Below, in pieces: positions 15,064 through 32,241 of a DNA stretch of 64,000 nt. Both the position numbers and the translations under genes were made by a program. Below the pieces are notes generated by a model. That model was not told the origin of the DNA. It saw nothing but the letters and a program-made list of their open reading frames with translations, and did no database searches. The first letter of the stretch is position 1. Every line of letters starts with the position of its first letter. The stretch comes from a virus (lineage: Duplodnaviria > Caudoviricetes), in the IMG/VR virus record IMGVR_UViG_3300008262_003210. One strand, given 5' to 3'.

Positions 15064-15459
15064 ATGAAAAGAGCATTAGTTGATAAAAGATTTTGGACTG
15101 TATGTCAAATACTAGGACCAGACGAAAACGAGTTTGAAACAACCTCAGATTTTATCTGGGTTGACTGCCCTGATAATTGCGAATCAGCCTGGGGATACGA
15201 CGAAGACACAAGAGAATTCACAGACCCACATGCTCATGCAAGGGACGAATTTGGAAATCCAATTGAACCATTTTACATGCAAAGAATGAGAGCATATCCT
15301 CCCATGGGTGATCAATTAGATATGTTGTTTAAAGAAATAAGAGATACTGGTACAATTTCTTCGGACGGACAATGGTTCCAATCCATACAGACTGTCAAAG
15401 ATACTGTTCCTAAACCAGGTGCAGAAGGCGATCCTGGAAATTACCTTCCTCCTACCTAA
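15064..15459 (+). CDS. Putative tail fibre assembly chaperone (131 aa)
   Basis: R..AYPPMGDQLDML...W...I..VKD..PKP motif; directly follows the fibre genes. Confidence 0.6.
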   Translation: MKRALVDKRFWTVCQILGPDENEFETTSDFIWVDCPDNCESAWGYDEDTREFTDPHAHARDEFGNPIEPFYMQRMRAYPPMGDQLDMLFKEIRDTGTISSDGQWFQSIQTVKDTVPKPGAEGDPGNYLPPT

Positions 15460-16056
15460 TCACCATACACCAAAGTTAACTACACATCTGTGTCCGGTAG
15501 TTGGCCTAGTGCTAGTATGATAACGAGAGCCATCAAATACGATGGCTCTTCCTTTTTTAGGTGTAATACTCTTAAAAATTTGTAAATTTTCTTTTTTAAG
15601 ATCATCAGGCGGAATGTCTCTAAAAGTTTTGTCATATATTACAGTATCTCCGTCGCTGTCTGTAACATAATATAGAACTACAATATGACTAACTTCTCTA
15701 TCAACATGCGGATGGTCTAATGCACTTTCTAAATTTGGCAGTGGGATAGTTAAAAAACTTCTTGCAGCAATAACTTCGTTTACATGAAATTTAATTTTTT
15801 CGCAAGCATTATATACAATAGGTAAAACTAGTCCGTATCCAGGACTGATAATTCCAGCAGTCCTGTCATAGAATTTATGAGCAAATGCAGGTTTAGCAAC
15901 TGCTACATTTAATTCGTTAAATTTTTCATTGTCAAATGTTATATCTCTCATATAATGCCAAGTTATATTATTTCCCAGCATCTGAGTTTCTATCAAATCT
16001 TGATATTGTTTAGGAACAATATCATCTAATACAACAACGTCGTCTATTATAAGCAT
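15460..16056 (-). CDS. Fe(II)/2OG oxygenase (HxD class)
   Basis: PHVD...LYYV.DSDGDT...PKKGRAIVFDG..YH...R..VNF. Confidence 0.8.
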   Translation of the reverse strand: MLIIDDVVVLDDIVPKQYQDLIETQMLGNNITWHYMRDITFDNEKFNELNVAVAKPAFAHKFYDRTAGIISPGYGLVLPIVYNACEKIKFHVNEVIAARSFLTIPLPNLESALDHPHVDREVSHIVVLYYVTDSDGDTVIYDKTFRDIPPDDLKKENLQIFKSITPKKGRAIVFDGSRYHTSTRPTTGHRCVVNFGVW

Positions 16057-16628
16057 ATTGAATTAAATGAAATAACTATCCTTGGTTGCGTTCCTTGATA
16101 CACGTCGGCATCGTGTAGCAACATACTAGGAAATAAAACTAAATTTCCAGGAGAACAATTAACAGTAAAATGTTCATCGGCAAATTCTAAACCAAGTTTT
16201 CTTTCCATGTAATAAGGCAAGTACCAGTTATTACTTCCTCCTTTATTGTTTTCACTATCAACATAAAAAATACCAGACCAAGTTGAACCAGGGTGATGAT
16301 GGGGTTTGTGATACCCGCCACATCTAGTAACATGTGCCCAACTTTCGGTAATTACTGTTCTGTAATTAGTGTTGTTAAAATTATTAATTAATGCAGTAGA
16401 TTCTTGTATCAACCATAATTTTAAATTATTAATATCTGTTTGTTTTTCTAAAAAATCAAACGATGACTCCCATAAATTTAATTTGGCATTAACTGCTATA
16501 TTAGATTCTACAGTATTAGGGATTTCAGCTTTAAGGCAAGTCTCGACTATTGTTTTCTTATTATCCTCAAATTCTTTCCATGTACTTGTAAGTAAAGGAA
16601 TTTTTCCTAATAGCGTAAATTGTCTCAT
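16047..16628 (-). CDS. Fe(II)/2OG oxygenase-like (HxH, TIGR02466-type)
   Basis: ESWAHV...PHHHPGSTWSGIFYV...G.LVLFPSMLLH...RIVISFN. Confidence 0.8.
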   Translation of the reverse strand: MRQFTLLGKIPLLTSTWKEFEDNKKTIVETCLKAEIPNTVESNIAVNAKLNLWESSFDFLEKQTDINNLKLWLIQESTALINNFNNTNYRTVITESWAHVTRCGGYHKPHHHPGSTWSGIFYVDSENNKGGSNNWYLPYYMERKLGLEFADEHFTVNCSPGNLVLFPSMLLHDADVYQGTQPRIVISFNSICL

Positions 16629-17362
16629 TTATCTATCTCTAAATCTTTAGATTCTAAAATGTATTTTACTTTATTTTTAATAAAACTTCTCCAACCAAAT
16701 CTTGATAGTTTGTTTAAATTAAGAAGATTAGAAAATCTTTTATGATCTTTTTCAGTATATGATTTAGACTCTGCGTGTATAGTTTCTCTTTTATAAGGAA
16801 TCACTTGCACTAACGGATCACCCATTTTAATTAATGTATCTTTTTTTTCAAAAAACATTAGATTTATAGGATTGCGATTTAGCATACTATCTGTATCAAC
16901 TATTGCGGGTAATGCTTGATAATTTTTATTGTGATAAAAATAAGGCAACCACATTAGGCCATACCCTTGTTCGGTTACAATACTCCAGGGGCTATTTAAT
17001 TTAATAGACATTCGTAATTCAAACTGATTGCCAATAGTATCTCCTATCTGTTCCGAAGAATGAATTTCATACCCGTAATCAGTATTGCTCATTTCTATTT
17101 TTACAGAATCCTCAAAAAAAGATACTTGTATATCGCACCATGCAGGAATGATATAACCTGCTTTTGTATAATTTGATATAGCCGGGCATTGCCTAATTGT
17201 TAACTGACTTGCAGATTTACTGTGGTCAAAAGGACAAATCTCACCAACCGGCAGATTTTTAAATTCGTCAGGAAAGTATTTTTCTGCCGGAATAACTGGA
17301 GCATAGTTTCTTATAGCCCAATCAGGACAACTAAATGTTATTTGATTATTACTCATTGGCAA
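16625..17362 (-). CDS. DUF6065-like protein (dUTPase-like beta fold suspected)
   Basis: CPAISNYTKAGYIIP...KLNSPW...LPAIVDTD...IKMGDPLVQVIPYKR. Confidence 0.55.
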   Translation of the reverse strand: MPMSNNQITFSCPDWAIRNYAPVIPAEKYFPDEFKNLPVGEICPFDHSKSASQLTIRQCPAISNYTKAGYIIPAWCDIQVSFFEDSVKIEMSNTDYGYEIHSSEQIGDTIGNQFELRMSIKLNSPWSIVTEQGYGLMWLPYFYHNKNYQALPAIVDTDSMLNRNPINLMFFEKKDTLIKMGDPLVQVIPYKRETIHAESKSYTEKDHKRFSNLLNLNKLSRFGWRSFIKNKVKYILESKDLEIDK

Positions 17363-17939
17363 ATATATCCACTGATATTGTCAGTGTCATAACTAGCCTA
17401 TTTTCTTGACTAGAATTTATTTCAGTTTTATGATGTAAAAATCCAGGGAAAAAGATCACATCATTCTGGTTAACTTCTAAAATAGTCCAGTCATTTTTGT
17501 TATTTTTTGGAAAACCAGAAAATGTATATTGTAACGGATCTTTAAACATTATATTTCCGCCTAATTTAGGTTGTTTTAAATAGATAACAATATTTTGATG
17601 ACACATTGCATGATCATGCTCATCTGTCCATGCGCCTGGGGGATGTAAGTTTACCCAGCTTCTGTGTACACGTCTTGGACGGTCAACAAAATTAGATGTA
17701 TCCCACACTATTTTACTTTGTTGAATTAACCACTCTTTTAGATCTTTACAAACAGGATCATTAATTAAGTTGTTTATAGTACTGTATGTAGACTTGCCAC
17801 CGTTTTTTTCTAAATTATGATTTGAATTTTCATTAAAGTATGTCAAAAATTTACTAGAAATATTTGTTAAATCTCCGGGATAAACAGATTTATGTATTAA
17901 ACTAGGCCAAAGATTTATGTGTTCGATTGATGACGTCAT
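17349..17939 (-). CDS. Fe(II)/2OG oxygenase-like (HxH)
   Basis: SWVNLH...EHDH...IYLKQP..GGNI.F...VIFFPGFLHH...RLVMTL. Confidence 0.8.
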   Translation of the reverse strand: MTSSIEHINLWPSLIHKSVYPGDLTNISSKFLTYFNENSNHNLEKNGGKSTYSTINNLINDPVCKDLKEWLIQQSKIVWDTSNFVDRPRRVHRSWVNLHPPGAWTDEHDHAMCHQNIVIYLKQPKLGGNIMFKDPLQYTFSGFPKNNKNDWTILEVNQNDVIFFPGFLHHKTEINSSQENRLVMTLTISVDIFANE

Positions 17940-17940
17940 A

Positions 17941-18528
17941 TTATTCTACCAATTCGATCCACGTTGACATAATGTATTTTGTTCCAGACAGCGGAGGATT
18001 TCCTCGATGAGTGTGTGTATAACTTGCAGGCGCAATAATCATTGTTCCCCGTTTTGGCGGGATTCTTACAGACTGATATAAAAATTCTGTTTCCCCACCA
18101 TGTTCAATATCATTTAGATATAGCAACACAAATGCCAGTCGTCTTGCTGTTCCTATGTTTGCATGTTCACAATGCCATACATGATAGCCTTGCCTAGGTT
18201 CTGTTTTTTGTATTTTTACAGATTCACTTATGGCTTGTTTTGATATACTATTCAAAACTCCAATTTCATTAGAATACGATAAAAAATTAGCTCTAATTGA
18301 TTGATTAAATTCTTTTAAAATATTACTGTTGATATTAATTATAAAATCGTCAACCTCGTTTTCAACAAAATACTTTTCGTCGTCTTTGTTAATTTTTAAA
18401 GCACCGTCGTGTTGCTGTCGATTTAACGTTCTCCCTTCAGATTGCATTCTTTCAAAATGTGCAATCGCTCTATTACAGAAATCATCTGTTACAGAATTTG
18501 AATAAACTTTTATAAAAAAATCATTCAT
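17941..18528 (-). CDS. Fe(II)/2OG oxygenase (prolyl-hydroxylase-like, HxE)
   Basis: GYHVWHCE...LYLND...GGETEF...PKRGT.IIAP..YTHTHRGNPP..GTKYIMSTW. Confidence 0.85.
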   Translation of the reverse strand: MNDFFIKVYSNSVTDDFCNRAIAHFERMQSEGRTLNRQQHDGALKINKDDEKYFVENEVDDFIININSNILKEFNQSIRANFLSYSNEIGVLNSISKQAISESVKIQKTEPRQGYHVWHCEHANIGTARRLAFVLLYLNDIEHGGETEFLYQSVRIPPKRGTMIIAPASYTHTHRGNPPLSGTKYIMSTWIELVE

Positions 18529-20110
18529 ATTTGTTTTTTAAATATTGATATAATGTCGTAGCAGAATCAGCAAATTCGTTTCTTTCGGCTAGGTCAGCAT
18601 CCCATTTGTGCCAACATATATCCTTTAAGTAAGTCACGTACTCTGTATTAGCATTCCTAAACAACGTTCTTTTTAGTAAACTACTATCAATTGGAAACAG
18701 ATTCATTCCTGTGGCAATCATCATAGATCCGCCCATTTCTATATCATATAAATGACTTACAAATTTTCTATGTATTAGACTGTCTATTCCGTAAGTTGCA
18801 TAAACACCTAACTGCATAGTTTTAGGATAATTACGTTTTTGAGCAGCTTGCCAATAAGGTGTTTGATCTCTGTGACTCATAGCATAATGTAAGGCTACAA
18901 ATTCTGCAAACGCTCTAAAATCTCCTCTACATGCTTCGTTAAAAGCAGTTTTATCAAACTGACTTACCGAGTTTCTATTAAGTATTGCAACCAGTTTTAA
19001 TAAAAATTCATGAACTGTATACAAACCGTTAGACTCTAATGGTTCAATAAAGCCGGCAGCAAGTCCAATTCCACAAACATTTTTGTGATAAATTTCTTTG
19101 TGTATTCCTACTCTCATCTTAATGTTTTTAAATTCTAAAGAGTCAATAACAGATTTAGGAATTGGAACTTCTCTTTCGTTTTCTAAATATTGTTTAAATT
19201 CTTCAAGAGCAGCATCGTCAGAAATAAATTTATCACTATAAACATATCCAGTACCAGTACGACTCCATAATGGAATGTTCCAAACCCACCCATTTCCTAT
19301 AGCTGTGCAATTAGTAAATGGCTCTAGTTCTTTCTCTTTATCTTGAAACGGGATACGTGTTGCCCATGCGCTGTTGTTAGGTAATAAATCATTATAACTT
19401 TCAAACGGTGTGTGTAATGCTTTATCTAACAATATAGATTTAAAACCGGTGCAATCTAAGAATAAATCAGCAGTAACTATATCACCGTTATCTAATACTA
19501 AAGACTGAATTCCGTCGTCTTCCACTTGTACAGACAACACTTCTGCTTGAATGTGTACAACTCCTTTTGGAATAGCGTATGAATCTCTTAACCATGCACC
19601 AAACTTTGCCGCATCAAAATGATAAGCAACATCTCTATCAAAATTCCAGCCTGGTATTTCGTTGTTTTTATTATCGGTAATTTTATTTTTATTAACTAAT
19701 GCCATGGCCGGAAAGAATGTATCGGCAAAATTTGAGACAGGTATCTCAGGTTGCATTGCTTTTCTTGTGTACCAGTCATTAACTCCGTAAGGAAAGAATT
19801 TATTGTCAAATAGCGGGACTCCAAACGGGTAATGAAATGCCCCAGCATTTTCTTTGTAAAAATTAGTGAATTTGATGCTCATTTTATAACTAGCATCACA
19901 TTGTTTCATCCAGTCGTCGTCTTTTATGTCGAGGTCATGCAGCCATTCGTTTATCTGCCCAATAGTACTTTCGCCTACGCCCACAGTTGGGACGTTAGGG
20001 CTTTCGATTACATAAATTTCTTTGTTTGGAAAATTTTTAATTAGCGTTGCTGCGCTCATCCATCCGGCGCTGCCGCCGCCTACTATAACAATTTTATTAA
20101 CAATACTCAT
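18521..20110 (-). CDS. Flavin-dependent halogenase, tryptophan halogenase (PrnA)-like, copy 1
   Basis: GGGSAG FAD motif, GVGES, ASYK (catalytic Lys position), GWVWNIP, FIEPLESNG; own GGAG RBS. Confidence 0.85.
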   Translation of the reverse strand: MSIVNKIVIVGGGSAGWMSAATLIKNFPNKEIYVIESPNVPTVGVGESTIGQINEWLHDLDIKDDDWMKQCDASYKMSIKFTNFYKENAGAFHYPFGVPLFDNKFFPYGVNDWYTRKAMQPEIPVSNFADTFFPAMALVNKNKITDNKNNEIPGWNFDRDVAYHFDAAKFGAWLRDSYAIPKGVVHIQAEVLSVQVEDDGIQSLVLDNGDIVTADLFLDCTGFKSILLDKALHTPFESYNDLLPNNSAWATRIPFQDKEKELEPFTNCTAIGNGWVWNIPLWSRTGTGYVYSDKFISDDAALEEFKQYLENEREVPIPKSVIDSLEFKNIKMRVGIHKEIYHKNVCGIGLAAGFIEPLESNGLYTVHEFLLKLVAILNRNSVSQFDKTAFNEACRGDFRAFAEFVALHYAMSHRDQTPYWQAAQKRNYPKTMQLGVYATYGIDSLIHRKFVSHLYDIEMGGSMMIATGMNLFPIDSSLLKRTLFRNANTEYVTYLKDICWHKWDADLAERNEFADSATTLYQYLKNKYE

Positions 20111-20140
20111 GTTACTCCAATCTAATGTATATAATAATTA

Positions 20141-20788
20141 TCACATTGTAGAGTCTACTATAACATTTCCTGAAATTGTTATTCTATGCTTGTCTGAAGA
20201 TAAAAATGGGTAAACCAAATGTTTCATTTGAGACGGAAAAAATAAAACAGTACCTTCATACTTGCTTTCTGCAAAAAACGGTAACATAGTAATTTCCCCA
20301 AATACATTTGTATAGACAAAATTAAACGTTGTTGCTAACGGGTAATTAGAGCTAGAAACACAAGGCATCTCCATCTCTGTTTTTAAATCATACGGAATGT
20401 TTACCCAAATAACAAAACTAAAAACACCAGTATGATCATGTAACGGATTGTATTCGGTTTTCTTTTGAAAATTAACCCATATAGGATCCAACTTAAAAGA
20501 TATTGTTTTTACGGACGGGTGTTTTCTTAGAATTTCAGACTTATAGTTCCAGGCAAGCATATATTCGCCTGCCATTTCAAGCACAGTAGATTCTATAAGT
20601 GTTTGACACCTATCTAAATAAAATTGATATTCTAAATGGCCTGCTAGATTTTTTTGAATTTTAGGATGGTCTTCAATTGCATTTTCAATAAGTGCAACTT
20701 CTTCTTTAATTTTTAAAAGAATATCATCAGGTATAGTAGCTATAGAATAGCCATAATTTGGAAACGCTTTATGTTCAATTTTCATCAT
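20141..20788 (-). CDS. Fe(II)/2OG oxygenase-like (HxH)
   Basis: WVNFQ...NPLHDHTGVFSFVIWV...GTVLFFPS.MKH.VYPF...RITISGN. Confidence 0.8.
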   Translation of the reverse strand: MMKIEHKAFPNYGYSIATIPDDILLKIKEEVALIENAIEDHPKIQKNLAGHLEYQFYLDRCQTLIESTVLEMAGEYMLAWNYKSEILRKHPSVKTISFKLDPIWVNFQKKTEYNPLHDHTGVFSFVIWVNIPYDLKTEMEMPCVSSSNYPLATTFNFVYTNVFGEITMLPFFAESKYEGTVLFFPSQMKHLVYPFLSSDKHRITISGNVIVDSTM

Positions 20789-22269
20789 TTAGAAAAATTA
20801 ACAACAGTACATGAGTTTCTAGATTTTAAAATTTCTAAACATTCTCTATGAGGAATCATAGTTTGTTCTTCAATAAACTTTTTAAAATCTTTTTGTAGTT
20901 CGTTTATAGAAAACAACATGTCTTCATTTTGTTGCGACATCATATTTTTTATGCTTTCTGCATCAAGCATTTTTAAACCGTGCATGACTAATAACCAATT
21001 TACTTCTCTAAAAAGCAAATATGGTTTAGTAAAGAACGTTGTATTAGGCCCAGACATTTTAAAATGCTCTAATGTTTGCTGATTAAATTCAGTTAATTTT
21101 AAATTTTTACAATCCTTCCAAAAAGCAGAATCACTTCTGTTAGTTATATAATGCAATTGAACAAAGTCAATAATATTTTTAGCTACGTCTTCAAAATCGG
21201 AATTATATTTGTCAATTAATGGCTGATTGCCGTGTTCATAGTTTACTAAAGAGTTAGCAATGCCAAATGCTTGCTGAATAGAAGTTCCTATACTACTTGC
21301 CTCTAACGGTTCAACAAAACTTCCTGCAAGTCCAACAGAAATGCAATTTTTAATCCAAAATTTATTTACATATCCTGCTGTAAATTTAAATGTTTTAGCA
21401 ATATTAATAGGAGAGGAAAAAACTGATTGTGCTTCTGCTATGGCTTGTTCGTCTGTAATAAATTTATCACAATATACATAACCATTACCAAATCTATCAA
21501 TAGTTGGTATTCTCCACATCCAACCAGAACTCATTGCAGTACTAAGGGTGTGTGAAGGAATATCTTCTATTTTTTCTGTAGGAAATGCAAACGCACTATT
21601 CATTGGTAGATAGTCAGAACAGTCTACCCATGTTGCACCTAATTTAGAAGATATGACACGTTTAAATCCACTACAGTCAATAAAAAAATCTGCTGAATAT
21701 TTTCCAGATTTGCCAACTAGTTCTGAAACATGACCTGTGTTATCTAAGATAACATCGTCTATTGTATCATCAATAATTTTTATATCTCTGATTAAACATT
21801 GCTTAATAAGATAATCGTTAAGTTTCATTGTATTGAAATGAAACTGATTAACGGTTCCCTCCAATGGCTCGTAATGAACTGATTTATGAAGGTTATCAGG
21901 AATAATATCGTGATGTGTTTTTCCTTCAGCAATCATACCTAAATAAATGTTATTAGGACCATTATAGCTTTCTTTTAAAAAATGACCATGGACACTATGA
22001 AAATAATAGTCATCGTCTCCATTCCAATTTATAAATTTTATACCAGATTTAAATGTTGCATCTGTTTCTTTTAATAATTCTTGGATTGAAATTCCTGCAA
22101 CCTGCATAAAGCGAGCCCAATGTTCAGTTGACCCTTCTCCAACTCCAATAATGCCAATGTCAGATGATTTTACTATTGTAATATCAAGTTTTCTGTAGAT
22201 AGATTTTAATATAATTGCGTTAACTAGTCCACTAGTCCCACCGCCAAGAATTATTAAATTGTTAATCAT
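20785..22269 (-). CDS. Flavin-dependent halogenase, PrnA-like, copy 2
   Basis: GGGTSG, GVGEGS, ATFKSGIKF, GWMWRIP, FVEPLEASS. Confidence 0.85.
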   Translation of the reverse strand: MINNLIILGGGTSGLVNAIILKSIYRKLDITIVKSSDIGIIGVGEGSTEHWARFMQVAGISIQELLKETDATFKSGIKFINWNGDDDYYFHSVHGHFLKESYNGPNNIYLGMIAEGKTHHDIIPDNLHKSVHYEPLEGTVNQFHFNTMKLNDYLIKQCLIRDIKIIDDTIDDVILDNTGHVSELVGKSGKYSADFFIDCSGFKRVISSKLGATWVDCSDYLPMNSAFAFPTEKIEDIPSHTLSTAMSSGWMWRIPTIDRFGNGYVYCDKFITDEQAIAEAQSVFSSPINIAKTFKFTAGYVNKFWIKNCISVGLAGSFVEPLEASSIGTSIQQAFGIANSLVNYEHGNQPLIDKYNSDFEDVAKNIIDFVQLHYITNRSDSAFWKDCKNLKLTEFNQQTLEHFKMSGPNTTFFTKPYLLFREVNWLLVMHGLKMLDAESIKNMMSQQNEDMLFSINELQKDFKKFIEEQTMIPHRECLEILKSRNSCTVVNFSK

Positions 22270-23731
22270 ATAGTTTTTTCCATTCTTCTGTTGATAAACA
22301 ATCTTTTGTTATCAAATTTATTTCGTTTCGCAACTGATTGTATTCGGTTGTGACTTTTTCTAATATGTTTTCGTGTTTAGAATTTAAAATATTCTTCAAC
22401 ATTGTTTTATCAACTAAATTATAAGCCTGTAATACAACCGCATAATTTTCTAAAGAGTATGCAACTCCAAAATCATAAAAATTTCCATTTTTAATAGCAT
22501 CTAATTTAGATTGTAAAGATTCAGGAATAGAACTAATGGACAAATGCCTATTCCAAAATTCTGTGTCATTTTTTCTATTTCTATAGTGTAAAGAAATAAA
22601 ATCTACTGTATCATTAACAATATCTTCGTATGCAGAATTAAACCTGCTTTGTCCGTGCAAATGAGTTTGCTTGCAAGGGCTCCATGTTTCAGAAAGTATT
22701 CGCAACATCATGGCTATCATAGTGTGTCCGCCAGACCCAAGCGGTTCTAAAAATCCAGAACTGAGTCCTATAGCAATTACATTTTTCTGCCAAGGATTCA
22801 TGGCCATTTCAGGTACCCACGATGCCTTTGCAACTAAATCAACAGTTTTACCAAGTTTGCGTTCAGCTTCTAATTGTGCTTGTTCTGAAGATATTAGAGA
22901 TTCATCGTAGACATATCCATTCCCACTTCTTGATTGTAAATCAATATTAAATCTCCAACCATAATCCATTGCAATCATGTTGCTATAGGGCTGTAAGTTT
23001 GATTTGTCCCACCAAGCAATAACACTATTAGCTGTAAAATATTTAGAAAAATTTTTAAATTTAATTCCTAATTCTTTTTTTAACAGCAGTTGATTAAATC
23101 CGCTACAGTCAATAAAAAAATCAGCTTCAATGTCTTGATTTTCTAAAATTAATTTTTTAATACCAGTTTCGTCTTGTAACGATGATTTATATTTTGATAG
23201 AACTAGTTTTATATCTAAAGATAATCCTATGTTTTTAAAATAATCAGCGTTCTTTCTGCTATCAAAATGATACATAGGTCTAACTACAAATCCGTTTGCA
23301 GTAAATGGTGTCAATCTATTTTCTAACAGAGCTCCTGAAACGGTAGTTTTGTGTAAAGGTATATCTGCAGCTAACAATCCTTTAAGTAAGACATTGTCAG
23401 TTCCAAATTCAGGATTGTAATAATCCCACCGATTTCTGTAAGAAGAAAAAAGAGGCTGTATAAATGTAGTGTTGTTTGCACCCCACCCTACAAATTTACC
23501 TCCTAATTTTGGTAATGCATCAACTTTTTTAATCCAGTCGTTTGTGTCAATGTCTAAAAAATCTAACAAATCAACAAAAGGCGCTGTGCAACTTTCTCCG
23601 GCTATGATTGGCGGGTGTTTTGGATCTTCTATAACTGTAATATCTAAGGACGGCCAAACTTTTTTGAAAAAAATAGCTGATAGCCAGCCACTTGTTCCTC
23701 CGCCTAGTATAGCAACAGTTTTTACATCCAT
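22262..23731 (-). CDS. Flavin-dependent halogenase-family protein, copy 3 (degenerate motifs)
   Basis: Probable start MDVKTVAILGGGTSG at 23731 (track start 23773 overlaps the upstream gene); ALPKLGGKF; GWRFNID instead of WxWxIP; FLEPLGSGG instead of EPLES. Confidence 0.75.
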   Translation of the reverse strand: MDVKTVAILGGGTSGWLSAIFFKKVWPSLDITVIEDPKHPPIIAGESCTAPFVDLLDFLDIDTNDWIKKVDALPKLGGKFVGWGANNTTFIQPLFSSYRNRWDYYNPEFGTDNVLLKGLLAADIPLHKTTVSGALLENRLTPFTANGFVVRPMYHFDSRKNADYFKNIGLSLDIKLVLSKYKSSLQDETGIKKLILENQDIEADFFIDCSGFNQLLLKKELGIKFKNFSKYFTANSVIAWWDKSNLQPYSNMIAMDYGWRFNIDLQSRSGNGYVYDESLISSEQAQLEAERKLGKTVDLVAKASWVPEMAMNPWQKNVIAIGLSSGFLEPLGSGGHTMIAMMLRILSETWSPCKQTHLHGQSRFNSAYEDIVNDTVDFISLHYRNRKNDTEFWNRHLSISSIPESLQSKLDAIKNGNFYDFGVAYSLENYAVVLQAYNLVDKTMLKNILNSKHENILEKVTTEYNQLRNEINLITKDCLSTEEWKKLYD

Positions 23732-24423
23732 CGTTTTGGCCTCAATTTGTTTATGGCGTTGTGTATTTTCCAACTAAGTTTAGGCATATAATGTTTAAGA
23801 GTTAAACAACTGTTAACTGCATGTTCTAATTTTTCTGTTCTTTCTATTTGTTTAAGTACAAATTTATCACTTGGATTGTCAGACCTAAATCTAATGTAGG
23901 CCATTGGTTGACCTCGTTTTAAAATAACTTCATCTTCTAACATCTCAATAGTAGTTACAATAGGTCGCTGCCAAGAGTAAATGTTAAACATACCTGGAAT
24001 GAGTCTCCAAGAATGATCAATGTGATTAAATGGGGGAATAAATTCTACATAAACAGGTTGATCCGCTACAAATACAAAACTATTGCTAATGGCTACAATG
24101 GGTCTACCATTGTCAGGATCAAAATCACCCCAATGAGTTCTTACCATTGCATCAGCAGCATCTTTGGGTAAATTTGTGCTGATTACTTTGTTATATTTGT
24201 CCCAGTGTAAAACTAAATCTACTGTATTTTTTAACACAAATGTATTTTTTACATATTTTACAAATGCAGGACATTGATGATAACGAGAAGTTGAGTCGTT
24301 CCAAGTATCTAGTGGCTCTAGATCAAAATAGGCCAAATCAACCCACCCATAATAGTTAAGTGCAGTATTTGTAGTTCGAATATTTTTTTCAAACCACGGA
24401 CAAAAACCAATTTTAATAGTCAT
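23722..24423 (-). CDS. DUF6065-like protein, copy 2
   Basis: CPAFVKYVKNTFVLK...IPGMFNIYSWQRP...LKRGQPMAYIRF; same pattern as 16625-17362. Confidence 0.5.
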   Translation of the reverse strand: MTIKIGFCPWFEKNIRTTNTALNYYGWVDLAYFDLEPLDTWNDSTSRYHQCPAFVKYVKNTFVLKNTVDLVLHWDKYNKVISTNLPKDAADAMVRTHWGDFDPDNGRPIVAISNSFVFVADQPVYVEFIPPFNHIDHSWRLIPGMFNIYSWQRPIVTTIEMLEDEVILKRGQPMAYIRFRSDNPSDKFVLKQIERTEKLEHAVNSCLTLKHYMPKLSWKIHNAINKLRPKRWM

Positions 24424-24631
24424 AGTTAGATGACCAAAATCCTTGCGGGCAGCTACCGGCTTTTAAAGCGCACTTAGCACTTACTGGACTGCCTACAATT
24501 TTACATATACCCTCGTTTTTGTTTTCATATGCATAACAATTTTTACAAATTTCCATTCTTTGTTCGTATATTTGCATAGAAACGCGAAGCACTCTTTCGT
24601 CTAAGTGCATCTGTCTTGGTTTTTTAATCAT
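24413..24631 (-). CDS. Small Cys-rich protein (DUF6171-like, R..IC..C...C...C...CP.G.W)
   Basis: 72 aa with 5 Cys; coupled by overlaps to both neighbours. Confidence 0.55.
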   Translation of the reverse strand: MIKKPRQMHLDERVLRVSMQIYEQRMEICKNCYAYENKNEGICKIVGSPVSAKCALKAGSCPQGFWSSNYDY

Positions 24632-25343
24632 TTTTTAAACTCCGTTTCATATGATCTAGAATAAATTCTAAATTTAAAATTTTATTTTGTAACTGATCAA
24701 TTTCACTAGTATGTGGTTGATAGTCTATTACATAGTTGCTGTCTGACGAAAGATATTTTCCAGAGTAATTAATGTTGTAACTCATTACAATTCTAGGGTG
24801 ATTAGAAAGATTTTCTTTTGTCTTATGTCTAATCCATCCCGGAAATAATATTAAATCTCCTGTCGAAACTGGAATAGAAGTTTCTATTTTATTTTCAATA
24901 GCAACTCCATACGGTATATGGGTTAGTCCATATTCCATTGGATTTATTAATACTAAGTCTCCAGAGTTTTTTTCGGCTTTTATGTATAATGTAGCAACTA
25001 TTGGATATAAACTATGAGAATGTTCTACTGTAAGACTATTATTATAATGTATATTTGACCAACATTGGTCAATCCTAGGTTCTAACCTAGGATCAATATC
25101 TAATATTTTCCAATATAATTTAGTATGTTGTAGAACAATATCTGATACTGTTTTTGAATATTCTTCTAGATGTAAATTACAGTCAGTGGAATAAGTGCTC
25201 ACTCCACCGTTCATTTCTAAATTACTAGTTTTAGGGGAAGATTGCTTTAATTTAACCTGTAGATTTTCTTCAAGATTACTAGTATCTATTTGATCTAAAA
25301 TATTAACTTTATATATTGGTAAAGAGAATAAATTGATAATCAT
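24624..25343 (-). CDS. Fe(II)/2OG oxygenase-like (HxH) with C-terminal coiled coil
   Basis: WSNIH...EHSHS...GDLILFPGWIRH...RIVMSYN; tail EIDQLQNKILNLE. Confidence 0.8.
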   Translation of the reverse strand: MIINLFSLPIYKVNILDQIDTSNLEENLQVKLKQSSPKTSNLEMNGGVSTYSTDCNLHLEEYSKTVSDIVLQHTKLYWKILDIDPRLEPRIDQCWSNIHYNNSLTVEHSHSLYPIVATLYIKAEKNSGDLVLINPMEYGLTHIPYGVAIENKIETSIPVSTGDLILFPGWIRHKTKENLSNHPRIVMSYNINYSGKYLSSDSNYVIDYQPHTSEIDQLQNKILNLEFILDHMKRSLKND

Positions 25344-25349
25344 CGCGCT

Positions 25350-25937
25350 TTATTCCAAGTACCATTTTTTACTCACAAAAGTTTTAAAAGAAAGATATGT
25401 TCTAAGTTTTTTGCAATCTCTATTAGGTGCAAGGCCCCTGTGAGGTATGTTACTATCAAAAACTAAACAAGTATTGGGCATTGGGTAATAGGTTGCAATA
25501 ACATTTCCGTCTTGATCAAAAAACTGAAATTCTCCTCCCCATTCTGGATTCCATTCCTGATTAGGGAAAAAACAAAAAGTCATAAATCCGTCGCCCATGT
25601 CGTTAAACTCTACTTCTTTATCAGTGTGTATTCCGCCATCTAACCCAAATGTTTTTCCTCCGGCAATAGCACTATAAAGTTTAAATTGATATTTTTTGGT
25701 ACTAGGCTCAAGTTCATTTAATTTATTAATGATTTCGTAAAACGCCTGTTCTCCTACCATGTGATACAATGTTAAATCGGCTTGCCAAAACATTGTTGTA
25801 TCCTCGTCCCAAACGTCAGGATTTGTAACTCTGCCATATTGCCAAATTGGTTTTTTCAATTCAGCAACAATGTTTACAAATGTATCATTTCTCAGTACAT
25901 TTTCTAAATAAAATATTTCAGACATGGGTTTGTTCAT
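25350..25937 (-). CDS. Fe(II)/2OG oxygenase (HxD)
   Basis: GIHTD...W.PEWGGEFQF...PNTCLVFDS.IPHRG...R.YLSFK. Confidence 0.85.
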   Translation of the reverse strand: MNKPMSEIFYLENVLRNDTFVNIVAELKKPIWQYGRVTNPDVWDEDTTMFWQADLTLYHMVGEQAFYEIINKLNELEPSTKKYQFKLYSAIAGGKTFGLDGGIHTDKEVEFNDMGDGFMTFCFFPNQEWNPEWGGEFQFFDQDGNVIATYYPMPNTCLVFDSNIPHRGLAPNRDCKKLRTYLSFKTFVSKKWYLE

Positions 25938-25938
25938 A

Positions 25939-26571
25939 TTAGTTGATATCCTTATTGTGTCTATTTATGGCCTGTTTTGCCATATTTTTAGAATTTTGAT
26001 TAGACCATTCTGGGAAATTATGCTCCTCCGCTGCTAGGCTAGACAGCAAATTTGTGTCTAAATCGTGTTTGTAATTTGCATAACTGCCATGTTTTTTAAC
26101 ATAATGAAGAAATGCTTGATACTGATACTGTTGCCCTTGCATAGGGTGTCTAAAATGCATAATTTCAGTTCCTTTGTACAGTAGCACATCACCAATGTCT
26201 AAGTCAACACTTATAACTTGTCCGTTATCTACTAACCAAAATGGCCATATGTATTTTTCATAATTCAACGTTAACGTAAGACTAATTTCACAACTTGGTC
26301 TATCAGTGTGTGGTGGAAGACTATCATTTTCTTGATATATCCTAGCATATGAATAGCATGGATATAATTCTTCTCCTACTATTGTTTCAACATTTTTTTG
26401 TATTTCTACTAATTCATCATTAAATATTCCGTAAAACGCAGGACTTAACGTACACAACGGATCAGGATTTCGATATACTCCTCGGCCAAATAATGTATTA
26501 AGCCTGTTGGCCATCTCTACACATTTTTCTTTTTCAAAGAAATTTTTTAAAATCTTATAATTTTCTTTCAT
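25939..26571 (-). CDS. Fe(II)/2OG oxygenase (HxD, cyanophage-type)
   Basis: YSYARIY....L.PHTDRPSCEIS.TL...GD.LLYKG...HFR...QAFLHYV. Confidence 0.8.
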   Translation of the reverse strand: MKENYKILKNFFEKEKCVEMANRLNTLFGRGVYRNPDPLCTLSPAFYGIFNDELVEIQKNVETIVGEELYPCYSYARIYQENDSLPPHTDRPSCEISLTLTLNYEKYIWPFWLVDNGQVISVDLDIGDVLLYKGTEIMHFRHPMQGQQYQYQAFLHYVKKHGSYANYKHDLDTNLLSSLAAEEHNFPEWSNQNSKNMAKQAINRHNKDIN

Positions 26572-27142
26572 TTTGGCTAAGAGTTATATTAAACGATAAA
26601 CTAATTCTTTTATGACTTGTATTATTATGAAACACGGCATGTTCTAAAAAACTTGGAAATAACAAAATCTTTCCAACTTCTGGTTTATAGTTAACAGCGT
26701 TATCAATATTGTAAGTTAGCTTATGAAATCTATTAACTAAAGAAGGATTTCTAAAAACAATATCTCCGTCATCACCAGAAGTTTGGTGATAATAAACACC
26801 AGACATGTCACTATCGCCGTGCAAATGATAATGTTGAAAAGAATGTTCGCCTCCTATATTACACCATGATTCTCTAACATTAATGTTTAAATTAGAATAG
26901 TTTAATCGTATTAAGAATTCCCTACAATGTTTTTTTATTTCTTCTAATAGAATTGGTGTTTCAGATAAAACGTGTTCGTAATTACCATACTTAAAAGTAG
27001 TTGAAACTGTGTCTCCCCAAGGATTTACAAGCCGTGCTCCATGTAAAGTAGACACATACTCTGAAACTTCTTTTTGAATTGAATCTATATTTTCAACAAT
27101 AGCAAAATATATAGGAGTAGGAAAAAAATATTCAACTGGCAT
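26555..27142 (-). CDS. Fe(II)/2OG oxygenase-like (HxH)
   Basis: ESWCN...HYHLH...SGVYY...GKILLFPSFLEH.V...RISLSFN. Confidence 0.85.
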   Translation of the reverse strand: MPVEYFFPTPIYFAIVENIDSIQKEVSEYVSTLHGARLVNPWGDTVSTTFKYGNYEHVLSETPILLEEIKKHCREFLIRLNYSNLNINVRESWCNIGGEHSFQHYHLHGDSDMSGVYYHQTSGDDGDIVFRNPSLVNRFHKLTYNIDNAVNYKPEVGKILLFPSFLEHAVFHNNTSHKRISLSFNITLSQNERKL

Positions 27143-27758
27143 TGGATTCTATTGACAAGTTAAAAGGAATACTTATTTTATTTTTTAATTGTTTATGACT
27201 ATCATATCCATGATATACATTAGATTTAAACAATACTAATCTTCCAGGAACACAGTCATATGAGATTTTAGAATAATTCATCGGGTTATGAACCCAAGGT
27301 TTAACCGGTTCGTATGCATCTCTGTAAGGCGAACCAAAACATATCTTTGCACCTGGCGGAGCATCTACATAAAATACTCCGCTTATAGCAGCCCTGCCAA
27401 CAGTACTATGAATATGTTGAGCATGATAATCATATGGACCAATAGAATTTAACCACATGTTTGTAAAAGCCAGTTGATTCTCTTTTAAAGAAGGATATCC
27501 TAATACTTCACAAAATAGTAATGTTTGTTTTCGAATAGCTAAACATAAATCAGAAAATCTAACATCATTGTATAAATGACCGTATACGTCATGCCAAAAA
27601 GAAGTATGCAGACTACTTTCACCAAACGGATGAGGATCCTTTTCAATGTCTTTCAACATTTCCAAAGCAATCTGTTCGTAGTCGGCAAGTTTATCCATGC
27701 AGTTAAGGTCTGAATAATAGACCAATGTTGGAAACCACGAATCAATATAATGTGTCAT
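27132..27758 (-). CDS. Fe(II)/2OG oxygenase-like (HxH)
   Basis: MWLN...QHIHS...SGVFYV...GRLVLFKS.VYH...KISIPFN. Confidence 0.8.
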   Translation of the reverse strand: MTHYIDSWFPTLVYYSDLNCMDKLADYEQIALEMLKDIEKDPHPFGESSLHTSFWHDVYGHLYNDVRFSDLCLAIRKQTLLFCEVLGYPSLKENQLAFTNMWLNSIGPYDYHAQHIHSTVGRAAISGVFYVDAPPGAKICFGSPYRDAYEPVKPWVHNPMNYSKISYDCVPGRLVLFKSNVYHGYDSHKQLKNKISIPFNLSIESNAS

Positions 27759-28342
27759 TTAAATCTTGGCCCTACGACCCAGGAAACTAAACTTTTTCTT
27801 AAACCTTCTGTTACCGGAGTTACTTCGTGAATTACATAACTGGGGAATACAATTAAAGTTCCTTTAGTTTTAGGAGCAATTACTGGATCCTTTGTTGAAA
27901 ATCTATAAAATAATAATTCACCTCCTTGGTAGTCGGCTTCATCTGAAAGTTGAATAGTTAAACTTAATTTTCTAAAAAGATTATATTTGTAACCGTCGTC
28001 GCTGTGTGGTTTGTAATGACCTAGTGTATCTGAATGGTATTCAGCGTACTGTAAGTCTTCCATTTCTGTTAAATCGTATCTGTAAAATCTGTCATTCAAC
28101 TGTTGAATAATATTTGAAAGTTTCATGTAAAGATCTTTGGATTCTTCGTTAGTTTCAATCCAAGAAATTTTATTCTTACGAATTTCTTCGTTAGAAATTC
28201 CGGCTTCTAAAGTGCCATCGCCCTGCATAGTACTTTTGCTAGCCAGCATTTCTACTAATTTTATTTCATCATCGGTAAGAACGCCTGGTGCGTATGCAAA
28301 TGGTTCATTTGCGTAATTTAAATCTTTTATAAACCAGCTCAT
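27755..28342 (-). CDS. Fe(II)/2OG oxygenase (PKHD/prolyl-hydroxylase-like, HxD)
   Basis: HYKPHSD...RKLSLTIQLS...YQGGEL...GTLIVFPSYVIHEVTPVT.G.RKSLVSW. Confidence 0.85.
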   Translation of the reverse strand: MSWFIKDLNYANEPFAYAPGVLTDDEIKLVEMLASKSTMQGDGTLEAGISNEEIRKNKISWIETNEESKDLYMKLSNIIQQLNDRFYRYDLTEMEDLQYAEYHSDTLGHYKPHSDDGYKYNLFRKLSLTIQLSDEADYQGGELLFYRFSTKDPVIAPKTKGTLIVFPSYVIHEVTPVTEGLRKSLVSWVVGPRFK

Positions 28343-28911
28343 TGTTTCAATCCTGTATCAAAACTAACCACATATCGTTGATTAGAAAAATTATTTTCAG
28401 TGTAATGCATCAGCCAACTAGGAAACAATATTAAATCTCCCAGTGCTACTTTAAAATTAAAGGCTTGTCTGTTGTATTCAGTTAATCTTGTTGAAATTTC
28501 ATTAACCTTAAAAGGTTGACATGGGTTATCAAATATTAACTCGCCCGAATCGTCATCTGCTTTGCTATAAAAAACACCACTTATTAGACTAAGTTCGTGC
28601 CTATGAGGTTTAATTGTGCTGCCATCTCTGTATATGTTACACCAACTATAAGTTATTTTACAAGGATGCAATCCTAATTGATCAGCATAAAGATCTACAC
28701 ATTCCTGTATAGCATTTTTAAGATCTAAATTAGAATCTAAAAAAGAAGATGAGTTGCTTCTTAAACCTTTACCATTAAACAACTTATGATAAGTGTTAAC
28801 AAGTTCAGTTTCTTCAATTTTTTTACTAATTTCTTCTAAGTTAGCTTTGCCTAACAAATTATAAACATTTATAACGGTTGGAAATAACCAACATTCTGCT
28901 TTTTTAATCAT
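28339..28911 (-). CDS. Fe(II)/2OG oxygenase-like (HxH)
   Basis: SWCNIY...PHRH...SGVFY...GDLILFPSWLMH...RYVVSFD. Confidence 0.85.
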   Translation of the reverse strand: MIKKAECWLFPTVINVYNLLGKANLEEISKKIEETELVNTYHKLFNGKGLRSNSSSFLDSNLDLKNAIQECVDLYADQLGLHPCKITYSWCNIYRDGSTIKPHRHELSLISGVFYSKADDDSGELIFDNPCQPFKVNEISTRLTEYNRQAFNFKVALGDLILFPSWLMHYTENNFSNQRYVVSFDTGLKQ

Positions 28912-28912
28912 T

Positions 28913-29362
28913 TTAAATTAAGTCCACTAAATCAAATATTGTTTGTAATTTTGTTCTAATAGTTTTATTACTAAAACTATTTCTCAAACCTTGATGCAAT
29001 GGTTTAGGAGCGTAATCAACATTTACCCATGCGTAGCCGGTGTGTTCTTGGCTGAGAATGGGAATAAATTCGTTGTCTATTACACAGAGATATGTGTGAA
29101 AATTAAAAACTTTGTCGTTTGATACAAACGTCTCTAATGGTATAGTTTTGATTATGTGGGGAGTTGTGCCTACTTCTTCAGATACTTCTCTTTGAAGTCC
29201 TTGCCAGGGATTTTCATGTTGTAGGTTAGTGCCACCTACTAATCCCCAAGTACCAGCATGTTTGCCTTCGGCTTTTTGTAACAGTAAAAATCTTCGTGTA
29301 GATTTAGCGTAGAATAATGCTCCGCTACATACAATCTTATCTGTTACAGTTCTAATCTCCAT
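28913..29362 (-). CDS. Nudix hydrolase
   Basis: Complete Nudix box G-x5-E-x7-REVSEEVG. Confidence 0.85.
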   Translation of the reverse strand: MEIRTVTDKIVCSGALFYAKSTRRFLLLQKAEGKHAGTWGLVGGTNLQHENPWQGLQREVSEEVGTTPHIIKTIPLETFVSNDKVFNFHTYLCVIDNEFIPILSQEHTGYAWVNVDYAPKPLHQGLRNSFSNKTIRTKLQTIFDLVDLI

Positions 29363-30804
29363 TCGCCCGCCCTATACTCGCCTTCAAACGATTTAGCCCA
29401 AAATACACCATTCCAGACGTACTGGACCCCAGTATATATATTCGTTTGATATATGAGTGTGTCGGATTCTTGAGTAGAATTAAAAATTATATACCAATTT
29501 GTATTATCAAATTCTATAATATCGTTTGCATAGGCAACTAGATTCCCCCAAGCACTAGCTGGTTGAGTGTTATTTTCGTTGCCTATATCTTCTATAATTA
29601 AGTATCGAGTACCTGCTACTGGTGACTCTGGATTATAGGTCAGGGGATTAATAATTGCATCAAATGTTCCTGGGCTTGCTGGCCTTAAGTTATTTGTTCC
29701 GTAGTCGGCATCAGTGTCCAAATTACCGTCGCTATCAATTCCTGTATTCGTATTAAGTGTATCTGCGTCCCAGGATACTTGTAGGATTGTTGGATCTAGT
29801 GGACTTATTGCCACTGTGCCTATAACTTCTGTTCCGTTTGATTGAGTTAAGTACAATGAACTTGATCCTGCTGTGTACTTTCCAGGATATTTGTCAAAAA
29901 GTGCTTGCCATTCAATTGGCGTTCCTTGACGAACAGGTATATCCAGTGTTGGTTCTCTAGGCACGCTGCTTTCTGATTTATTCAATAAAATTACTTGATT
30001 GTTATAAACTTGAACATTGTAATCTGTAATAGTAGCAGATTCGCGAGTTAACAACTGCCCCATAGCAATATCTGGACCTGCTAATGGCTGACCTAATCCT
30101 TCTATGTAAGAATTATTGTTTACATTTGCACCGTCATATAAACTTGTAATAATTTTAGTAATAACTCCAAGATGCTTAACTTTAACTGGAGGACTAATCC
30201 ATATAGGAGTTTCTAACTGTAGTGTTGCAATATCAATAGGACTATCAGTACCTACTGGAACACTACGACTAGACCATGTTGTCTGTGTTAGATTTAAAAT
30301 TGAAAGGCTTGTCCAGTCAACATAATTGTCGGTTGTCTGTAGTTCAAGGCTTGGATTAAACAATACTAGTATTTGTTCTAGTAACTGTAATTTTTGTTCA
30401 GTATTTGCAGTCCATATATCACACTTCATAGTTAACTTAAAAGGCGTTGGCATCAAACGCTCAACAGTATAGTTGCGTCCTTGTCCAGAAGTGTACACTG
30501 GATTATTTGGATCAGCGTCATTTATTTCGCGTTCTCTTACATGAACTTTGCCTACAAAAGTAGAGTCACTCATTCTAGTCATGTCTAAATCTAAACCAGA
30601 AATATAAACAGCAATTCTTGGCACACTACTAATTTTGTTTTCACTGTTTTGACGAACAATACTTGCCGCCTGCCTATCAGCATCTCCGTACATAACCGGA
30701 ACACGAACAAGAGTTCCATCTCCGTATTTGACTGTAAAATTACTCAACACACGAATAGTTTGAGTTAAGTACCTTCTTATTTGTCCGTCATAAAAAAATT
30801 GCAT
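29344..30804 (-). CDS. gp15: Tail terminator / sheath stabiliser (T4 gp15-like) with C-terminal extension
   Basis: FFYDGQIRRY...F......VPV.YG...R; QKLQLLEQILVLFNP. Confidence 0.75.
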   Translation of the reverse strand: MQFFYDGQIRRYLTQTIRVLSNFTVKYGDGTLVRVPVMYGDADRQAASIVRQNSENKISSVPRIAVYISGLDLDMTRMSDSTFVGKVHVREREINDADPNNPVYTSGQGRNYTVERLMPTPFKLTMKCDIWTANTEQKLQLLEQILVLFNPSLELQTTDNYVDWTSLSILNLTQTTWSSRSVPVGTDSPIDIATLQLETPIWISPPVKVKHLGVITKIITSLYDGANVNNNSYIEGLGQPLAGPDIAMGQLLTRESATITDYNVQVYNNQVILLNKSESSVPREPTLDIPVRQGTPIEWQALFDKYPGKYTAGSSSLYLTQSNGTEVIGTVAISPLDPTILQVSWDADTLNTNTGIDSDGNLDTDADYGTNNLRPASPGTFDAIINPLTYNPESPVAGTRYLIIEDIGNENNTQPASAWGNLVAYANDIIEFDNTNWYIIFNSTQESDTLIYQTNIYTGVQYVWNGVFWAKSFEGEYRAGEWRLEL

Positions 30805-32221: not shown

Positions 32222-32241
32222 TATTTATCGCTAGATAAATA
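32222..32241. promoter_or_regulatory. Back-to-back T4-type late promoters (GATAAATA on each strand)
   Basis: Minus copy at 32229-32222 serves gp14; plus copy at 32234-32241 serves gp13. T4 late consensus is TATAAATA. Confidence 0.65.

Follow-up and report, generated by a model that had tools for sequence, protein, structure and literature searches.

The viral contig IMGVR_UViG_3300008262_003210 (Duplodnaviria; Caudoviricetes) was analyzed over a 64,000-nucleotide stretch, hereafter the window. It carries an island of 18 minus-strand open reading frames (ORFs) at positions 15460-28911, in which adjacent genes overlap by 4-17 nt or are spaced by 1-30 nt (Table 1). The island encodes 12 Fe/2-oxoglutarate (2OG)-type oxygenases, three flavin halogenases, two DUF6065-like proteins, and one Cys-rich DUF6171 protein. 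An earlier prediction made from the sequence alone (the original prediction) had arrived at the same census, including the division of the oxygenases into seven HxH and five HxD/E types. It had recognized no nonribosomal peptide synthetase, polyketide synthase, transporter, or flavin reductase, and no such family was found among the 18 products. The island is very probably an enlarged form of the dioxygenase/halogenase/dUTPase-fold cluster of cyanophage Syn9.

The island belongs to a continuous minus-strand block of 21 genes (15460-32216), whose largest gap is at most 30 nt. The neck-side backbone genes lie upstream of the island, on the same strand and without a gap. At the other end, the island and the fiber operon converge tail to tail, with ox3a as the last island gene at the junction. 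No scaffold-forming enzyme, carrier protein, precursor, exporter, or immunity gene was found among the 18 island products. Because no gap exceeds 30 nt, there is no room for a hidden small precursor gene.

The three fiber-tip paralogues share a glycine-rich C-terminal domain (Gly_rich_2 on the orthologues), vary in their His/Asn-rich loops, and resemble Syn9 gp38/gp39. They follow a fiber protein of more than 3,500 residues (1-10683, plus strand), which extends beyond the window start. A tblastn search of phages with a fiber-tip paralogue gave no match at E 1e-5, for which the low-complexity filter is probably responsible. phrog_1787 and the annotations of the records served as fiber markers in cultured phages.

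Table 1. Genes of the island, flanking modules, and late-promoter-like motifs in the window.
Feature	Position	Strand	Assignment and remarks
Backbone genes	28913..32216	-	NUDIX, gp15-like tail sheath stabilizer, neck protein; PF00293, PF16724, phrog_11196, phrog_11591
ox5g	28339..28911	-	PF13759 (E 4.6e-18); HRH; first in transcription order
ox3d	27755..28342	-	PF13640 (prolyl-hydroxylase/PKHD-type; E 4e-14); HSD
ox5f	27132..27758	-	PF13759 (E 4.4e-12); HIH
ox5e	26555..27142	-	PF13759 (E 6.7e-19); HYH; modeled copy
oxX	25939..26571	-	No Pfam match; phrog_2954 (E 3e-42); HTD; Syn9-gp54-like
ox3c	25350..25937	-	PF13640 (E 3.5e-8); HTD
ox5d	24624..25343	-	PF13759 (E 1.3e-12); HSH; C-terminal extension; 30% identity to Syn9 gp45
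DUF6171	24413..24631	-	72-residue Cys-rich protein; PF19668 (E 2.7e-7); five conserved Cys
p7084b	23722..24423	-	Diverged DUF6065-like; phrog_17480 and phrog_7084; immediately upstream of halogenase gene
hal3	22262..23731	-	PF04820 (E 3.4e-74); deviant motifs; start placed at ATG
hal2	20785..22269	-	PF04820 (E 9.4e-99); all canonical motifs
ox5c	20141..20788	-	PF13759 (E 6.1e-10); HDH
hal1	18521..20110	-	PF04820 (Trp_halogenase; E 1.3e-106); VirX1-type
ox3b	17941..18528	-	PF13640 (E 2.4e-10); HCE
ox5b	17349..17939	-	PF13759 (E 3.5e-11); HDH; 34% identity to Syn9 gp45
p7084a	16625..17362	-	DUF6065-like; phrog_7084 (E 4e-41); likely start ATG at 17356
ox5a	16047..16628	-	PF13759 (E 3.2e-17); HHH
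ox3a	15460..16056	-	Syn9 gp51/gp53-like; phrog_274 (E 3e-33); HVD
phrog_1787 gene	15064-15459	+	E 4.5e-19
Fiber-tip paralogues (3, glycine-rich)	11620-12579, 12586-14091, 14098-15045	+	phrog_863 (E 1e-36 to 1e-41)
GATAAATA late-promoter-like motif	32222..32229	-	Just upstream of neck gene ATG; kept in L001, L002
CATAAATA T4-type late-promoter-like motif	25962..25969	-	Inside oxX 3' end, ~30 nt upstream of ox3c start
ATAAATA copies	15037, 32235, 38285, 40570, 43804, 58202, 62816	+	
ATAAATA copies	58253, 32228, 25968	-	

Seven of the oxygenases match PF13759 (E 6e-10 to 7e-19) and three match PF13640 above the cut-off. ox3a scored 24.4 bits against PF13640, under the 27-bit Pfam cut-off, and oxX had no Pfam match, even at E 5. 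oxX is 32% identical (5e-24) to Syn9 gp54, which Iyer et al. (2010, PMC2938197) count among the classical 2OG dioxygenases. The solved sequences nearest to ox3d are the PKHD-type hydroxylases 3dkq and PiuC. An HxD/E...H facial triad is present in five of the 12 oxygenases and HxH...H in the seven PF13759 genes; across 26 aligned PF13759-type sequences, neither the two His of H-x-H nor the distal His varies. In the PF13759 copies of the island, a basic residue (Arg in six, Lys in ox5f) follows the distal His at a distance of about 10 residues. A basic residue at this place binds the C5 carboxylate of 2OG in this superfamily. The island paralogues form at least three sequence groups with mutual identity of at most 39% and are therefore old and distinct.

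One of the 12 oxygenases, ox5e, was modeled with AlphaFold2 at a predicted local distance difference test score (pLDDT) of 86.6. The model matched 144 chains at Z ≥ 8, and the characterized ones among the 50 matches listed all belong to the double-stranded beta-helix 2OG superfamily. Its own uncharacterized family came first (2rg4, Z 20.3), followed by protein prolyl hydroxylases (Z 14.7-15.4). The nearest protein hydroxylases were EF-Tu prolyl hydroxylase, PHD2, and OGFOD1. The prolyl hydroxylases (P. putida P4H-EF-Tu 4iw3, PHD2, OGFOD1, and PBCV-1 vCPH 5c5t) show 10-16% sequence identity, and they lead the oxygenases of small molecules and nucleic acids by less than 1.5 in Z. They have H-x-D, whereas the PF13759 proteins have H-x-H.

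A thirteenth PF13759-like oxygenase gene (55095-55721, plus strand; phrog_81, E 2.6e-22) stands alone amid replication genes of the window. The names 'DNA endonuclease V', 'ferrochelatase', and 'minor coat protein', which PHROG and RefSeq attach to island families, look like propagated misannotations; such product names occur in the records of Syn9, S-RIM44, P-TIM40, and P-RSM6 (L022, L036, L037, and L039).

All three halogenases and their orthologues keep the GxGxxG flavin adenine dinucleotide motif and the catalytic Lys. WxWxIP and EPLES are kept in hal1 and hal2. hal3 reads WRFNID and EPLGS, as does its orthologue in the relative L002; the second Trp and the Pro are thus missing from WxWxIP and the Glu from EPLES, and judged from these motifs, hal3 is perhaps not a canonical halogenase. 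hal1 shares 40% identity with Syn9 gp41 and gp42. Over its full length it matches VirX1 (PDB 6qgm; E 1.7e-115, identity ~40%), a flavin halogenase from cyanophage Syn10 that iodinates its substrates, with GxGxxG, Lys, WxWxIP, and EPLES kept as in VirX1. hal2 and hal3 belong to other branches than VirX1 (E 1e-39 and 4e-35), and the nearest solved chains of hal2 are 9luq and 9lu2. VirX1 itself originates from a Syn9-type cluster. To our knowledge, it is the sole member of such clusters with assayed activity, and we know of no physiological substrate for it.

p7084a and p7084b align as one family. Neither matched Pfam, even at E 5, and one orthologue reached E 0.019; the DUF6065-like assignment is weak by sequence and is supported by structure and by Atlas. 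The model of p7084a (pLDDT 76) reached Z 6-11.1 with 22 dUTPase/dCTP-deaminase chains, whereas the best match after these scored 3.5. Searches of solved structures with family sequences and profiles returned nothing meaningful and matched no dUTPase sequence. C59, D77, G181, and P183 are invariant in the family alignment, C59 in 24 sequences, and p7084a is 28% identical to Syn9 gp43. The DUF6065-like family comprises ~4,000 representative clusters. In Atlas clusters, DUF6065 is fused with PF13640 in viruses and with Cupin_8/JmjC_2 in Pseudomonadota, and a DUF6065-like gene stands beside a halogenase in cyanophages Syn9, Syn10, S-RIM44, Sf-FP1, Sf-CH3, and Sf-FR1. Because of these fusions and of its recurrence beside halogenases, DUF6065 is read as a putative non-catalytic partner. 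Of three bacterial contexts sampled for distant DUF6065 homologues, one had a halogenase close by and the other two had no oxygenases. A complex prediction for hal1 and p7084a scored 0.00, which weighs neither for nor against binding. phrog_7084 homologues also occur in haloarchaeal myoviruses: besides Halophage HF1 (L035, 48119-49003), about 50 further records of haloarchaeal viruses have one. There the gene stands alone where the baseplate/tail module ends, and the 10.6 kb shown contain neither a halogenase nor an oxygenase.

The dUTPase fold raises the alternative that the dUTPase-fold proteins bind a pyrimidine nucleotide and that bases of phage DNA or host RNA are hydroxylated or halogenated by the island enzymes. 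We consider this highly improbable. The fold match is clear (Z up to 11.1), but non-enzymatic proteins with the dUTPase fold, such as herpesvirus ORF10 and pp71, are among the matches, and the profile search recovered no dUTPase. By eye, p7084a retains what are presumably remnants of dUTPase motif 3 (AIVDTD) and motif 4 (GDPLVQ); the Arg-Ser of motif 2, the Arg of motif 4, and motif 5 are lost, and the invariant Pro replaces the motif 4 Arg. NUDIX and deoxynucleoside monophosphate kinase genes lie nearby, but the NUDIX gene is conserved backbone and not part of the island. The structural closeness of AlkB-type enzymes to ox5e (Z 14.0) and a distant DUF6065 homologue near a halogenase and a dNK/thymidylate kinase-family gene (PF01712 dNK, PF02223 Thymidylate_kin) would also fit base modification.

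The DUF6171 protein was considered as a precursor of the kind found in ribosomally synthesized and post-translationally modified peptides. This is unlikely, as DUF6171 is a conserved, mostly viral family that is missing from the relative L031 and from the sister lineage, where the enzymes persist.

The original prediction had presented the island as a candidate for an undescribed system, which does not hold. The Syn9 cluster, with 10 tandem dioxygenases, two halogenases, and a dUTPase-fold protein with a conserved Cys, was described by Iyer, Abhiman, de Souza & Aravind in 2010 (NAR 38:5261, PMC2938197), who proposed halogenated, hydroxylated amino-acid-derived metabolites as its product. The island likewise contains tandem diverged dioxygenases, at least one halogenase (three here), and a conserved-Cys dUTPase-fold protein. 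Syn9 gp41/42, gp43, gp45, gp48, gp50, gp51/53, and gp54 each match window genes, and pairwise matches to Syn9 were found for hal1, p7084a, ox5b/d, ox5e, ox3b, ox3a, and oxX. No JmjC or Cupin_8 member of the gp49 type was found among the 18 products, and such a member is not stated to be universal for the cluster type. The clusters of Syn9/Syn10 (gp41-gp54/gp60) and of the window share tandem 2OG families, VirX1-type halogenases, and the conserved-Cys dUTPase-fold protein, and both lie directly behind glycine-rich fiber-tip genes and phrog_1787. They differ in size and content: Syn9/Syn10 have ~14 genes with two halogenases, whereas the window has 18 genes with three halogenases, a second DUF6065-like copy, and DUF6171, and no JmjC gene. 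Unlike in Syn9/Syn10, the window island is on the strand opposite to the fibers and co-oriented with the neck genes, and its carrier is a freshwater phage of ~370 kb outside Kyanoviridae.

Cyanophages had also been credited with only scattered members of these families, but homologous arrays occupy the same slot, and S-CREM1 and S-SCSM1 have 10 and 24 oxygenase genes, respectively. These are diverged PF13759 and PF13640 genes too, with mutual identity of at most 41-44%. The S-SCSM1 oxygenases are scattered over several regions, whereas 12 of the 13 in the window are contiguous in one operon-like block. No 2OG oxygenase is among the S-SCSM1 virion proteins named in the text of the paper on that phage, and 13 of the 45 proteins detected are of unknown function. 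The closest counterpart in layout is S-RIM44 (Vellamovirus), in which the same slot reads giant fiber, tips, small ORF, two halogenases, DUF6065-like gene, oxygenases, neck, and gp15. Its cluster has ~9 genes on the strand of the fiber and neck genes, and the phage is a marine member of Kyanoviridae.

The attachment of the island to the fiber module, noted in the original prediction, recurs among close relatives and in a sister lineage, as well as in eight of 12 cultured cyanomyovirus lineages examined. The order of fiber tips, phrog_1787, and island is shared by the window, the relatives L002, L027, and L031, and the sister lineage G002. An order of fiber-tip gene, small ORF, halogenase, and oxygenase was found in Syn9/Syn10, S-RIM44, P-TIM40, S-WAM1, P-RSM6, S-SZBM1, S-CREM1, and Sf-FR1, where that of S-CREM1 and Sf-FR1 was judged from coordinates. 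The S-RIM44 cluster is placed between the fibers and gp13-gp15, as in the window. In a different 372-kb phage, PF13640, DUF6065, and DUF6065-like genes come directly behind the tail genes. The fiber linkage is frequent, but not obligatory.

The island is syntenic in L001-L003, with protein identities of 54-93%. The ratio of nonsynonymous to synonymous substitution rates (dN/dS) was 0.03-0.21 for all island genes with an orthologue in L002 or L003 and an estimable dS, a set that leaves out ox3b (no orthologue in L002 or L003) and p7084a (dS saturated). The island genes are real and maintained under purifying selection. Orthologues of ox5g are 86-89% identical (dN/dS 0.05-0.08), those of p7084b 91% (dN/dS 0.04-0.05), and those of ox3a 93%; ox3c is the best-conserved oxygenase across the family (69-88% identity). 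Gene content turns over at the same time. L027 has 17 island genes and lacks hal3 and ox5e. L031 has ~14 and lacks ox5g, ox5f, DUF6171, hal3, ox5c, and ox5b. ox5c is missing in L003 as well, and ox3b is missing in L001 and L002 and lies directly upstream of p7084a in L027 and L031. In L031, two ORFs (86 and 125 residues) take the place of a single ox5a orthologue (L031:10743-11332), which is a probable pseudogene or a sequencing frameshift. The same three fiber-tip paralogues and phrog_1787 are kept in L001-L003, L027, and L031.

In L003, the island and NUDIX genes are 79-90% identical to those of the window (80-90% for the island genes) and gp15 and the neck gene ~51%; this drop, seen at L003 1450-3330 against window 28913-30804, marks a recombination (mosaic) boundary between the island and the neck genes. 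In G002, the island occupies the same slot, between phrog_1787 and NUDIX-gp15, in a different order. It comprises four halogenases, PF13759 and PF13640 oxygenases, a DUF6065-like protein, a JmjC_2 enzyme, and two DUF6445 proteins. The JmjC_2/Cupin_8 enzyme, the DUF6445 pair, and the gp15/NUDIX-side flank of the sister island were seen in L019 (2240-7238 and 13844-18900). An S8 subtilase, an E1_FCCH-domain protein, and a 542-residue protein without a Pfam match lie between the sister island and NUDIX; the halogenase of S-B64 is likewise followed by a gene annotated as a peptidase.

Recent horizontal acquisition, which the low GC content of the island might suggest, was rejected. GC content at third codon positions is equal to that of the neighboring genes (0.227 in the island, 0.218 in the fiber genes, and 0.249 in the neck genes). 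The lower island GC is therefore an effect of amino-acid composition, and the island is a long-term resident.

The turnover of gene content would suit an explanation in which the fiber-neck slot is a hot spot that gathers unrelated auxiliary enzymes. The host targets would differ from enzyme to enzyme (for example ribosomal proteins, EF-Tu, metabolites, or the 2OG/succinate pool), and the enzymes would have no link to the fibers or to one another. Hot spots, among them a hypervariable region near g15, have been documented for cyanomyoviruses, but in two phage families this slot is filled by the same gene families and not by random genes. Single oxygenases do occur elsewhere, as in S-B64, S-SCSM1, and the thirteenth window copy, but DUF6065 is fused to oxygenases in other genomes and recurs beside halogenases. 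Manipulation of 2OG and nitrogen status was proposed by Sullivan et al. (2010), but a mere 2OG sink needs no twelve diverged enzymes, each under purifying selection. Host take-over genes would, moreover, be expected early and not under late promoters. Accretion of unrelated enzymes appears quite unlikely on this balance.

The timing of expression was approached through promoter motifs, for which the T4-type late promoters are the established model. ATAAATA occurs only 10 times in the 64-kb window and is probably the late promoter of the phage; every copy has a plausible start codon 12-50 nt downstream. TATAAATA is under-represented in the window (2 found versus 8.2 expected). The CATAAATA site is the sole ATAAATA on either strand of the island, versus 13.6 ± 3.7 expected, and its position is kept in five relatives (L001, L002, L003, L027, and L031). 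Scans of the island for sigma-70 promoters and terminators remained at chance level. By analogy of the promoter motifs alone, the island is probably expressed late. The view of the block as coherent, conserved, and probably late-transcribed is supported. As a side observation, the copy at 43804 suggests that a 1006-residue ORF starts at an ATG near 43817.

The carrier is an uncultured freshwater myovirus lineage with a T4-superfamily backbone (gp15, sheath, tube, terminase, UvsX, and helicases), and it falls outside Kyanoviridae. Its gp15 is nearest to those of jumbo phages such as Phosso, PA5oct, and Atu_ph07 (33-37% identity), and the NUDIX gene adjoining gp15 is likewise annotated in PA5oct-like Pseudomonas jumbo phages. 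The related IMG/VR contigs behind L002 and L019 have 107 and 92 kb and are 29% and 25% complete according to CheckV, so the genome should be ~370 kb. Window DNA is present in lake, freshwater, and estuary metagenomes from 15 studies. No near-identical DNA was found among cultured phages, and a search for distant DNA similarity gave short jumbo-phage matches only, in the neck genes. The small phrog_1787 gene has homologues in cyanophages only, which hints at a picocyanobacterial host. Elsewhere in the window lie a Nol-like carbamoyltransferase homologue (60318-61331, plus strand) and a heptose kinase/adenylyltransferase-like gene (50689-51432, plus strand); carbamoyltransferase and heptose kinase labels recur in the genes flanking the halogenase of cyanophage S-SSM7.

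For the function of the island, we propose that a Syn9-type cluster hydroxylates and halogenates side chains late in infection, with the fiber tips as the leading candidate substrate. The chances of this reading are about even. Since no scaffold enzyme, precursor, or exporter is encoded, the substrate must already exist in the infected cell. Peptide or protein side chains are slightly favored as substrates because ox5e is nearest to protein hydroxylases and the sister island has a JmjC_2 enzyme. That the fiber tips specifically are the substrate is possible, though on present evidence we would not expect it. We infer all of the chemistry and the substrate, and tailoring of the virion or fibers is drawn from position and timing only. 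In the proposed mechanism, the island would be transcribed late, jointly with the neck genes, from NATAAATA-type promoters. About 15 soluble enzymes would act separately, with no obligatory assembly line. Electron-rich aromatic side chains would be halogenated by the halogenases with flavin reduced by the host, O2, and halide, and side chains would be hydroxylated by the oxygenases with Fe(II), O2, and 2-oxoglutarate. The leading candidate substrates would be the co-inherited Gly/His/Asn/Tyr-rich fiber-tip proteins, and the dUTPase-fold proteins would assist both enzyme types as non-catalytic partners or adaptors. In its most specific form, in which the phage halogenates and hydroxylates its own Gly/His/Asn-rich receptor-binding tips before assembly and DUF6065 adaptors present the fiber to the enzymes, the proposal is tentative and rather doubtful.

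The main rival, and a serious one although we regard it as unlikely, is the tailoring of a secondary metabolite. Free amino acids or a small peptide made by the host would be halogenated and hydroxylated in successive steps and so converted in the infected cell to a halogenated bioactive compound, for example an antibiotic or siderophore-like molecule, and released at lysis. Iyer et al. (2010, PMC2938197) interpreted the Syn9 cluster in this way. The bacterial neighborhoods of JmjC/Syn9-gp52-like dioxygenases with Trp halogenase, TonB, and SapC described there combine dioxygenases with one to three halogenases, as the window does. Syn9-gp52/gp54-type dioxygenases and JmjC enzymes occur in bacteria together with one to three Trp halogenases, TonB-type receptors, SapC, and peptide synthetases. 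However, the bacterial sets hold uptake receptors or peptide synthetases and have predicted siderophore-like products, whereas the island is without those partners and has no scaffold enzyme, carrier protein, precursor, exporter, or immunity gene. The solved relatives of hal1-hal3 act on free tryptophan or other small molecules, except for a few that act on peptides, and SnoK and other small-molecule oxygenases nearly equal the protein hydroxylases as matches to the ox5e model. Against a metabolic pathway, close relatives freely lose individual enzymes, lone halogenases and oxygenases occur in other cyanophages, and the late structural-operon context is no obvious fit.

Several observations weigh against late side-chain modification with the fiber tips as substrate. 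Island size varies from 14 to 18 genes across relatives, with losses of up to five island genes, while the fiber architecture is unchanged. Syn33 has fiber-tip and phrog_1787 genes with no halogenase and one oxygenase nearby. The halogenase is away from the fibers in S-B64, S-SSM7, S-PM2, and S-MbCM6; in S-B64/S-H35 it comes after gp46, and in S-SSM7 it lies within a carbohydrate gene cluster. Synteny within Kyanoviridae is inherited, which leaves few truly independent cases of linkage. The end of the late fiber operon is a usual landing site for accessory genes, so adjacency may lack functional meaning. The HxH site of seven PF13759 proteins differs from the canonical 2OG triad, and that family is without a characterized member. 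The protein-hydroxylase lead of the ox5e model is inside the tie range of the aligner (SnoK Z 14.3, AlkB Z 14.0). No late sigma factor was identified within the window. Finally, the bacterial homologues that sit with TonB receptors and peptide synthetases point to small molecules.

This study extends the Syn9-type cluster beyond the marine T4-like cyanophages to an 18-gene version in a freshwater giant phage. The cluster is found there in the same slot, between the fiber-tip genes with phrog_1787 and the neck genes, and has a conserved internal late-promoter-like motif. Among the accessory genes of aquatic phages that still lack an explanation, 2OG oxygenase and flavin halogenase arrays rank with the most common, and a 2022 cyanophage genome paper stated that the viral functions of such arrays were "not specifically investigated". 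If the fiber reading is wrong, halogenated metabolites of lakes and oceans might still come from this cluster. If it is true, virion proteins would be the long-sought substrates of VirX1-type halogenases and cyanophage 2OG arrays.

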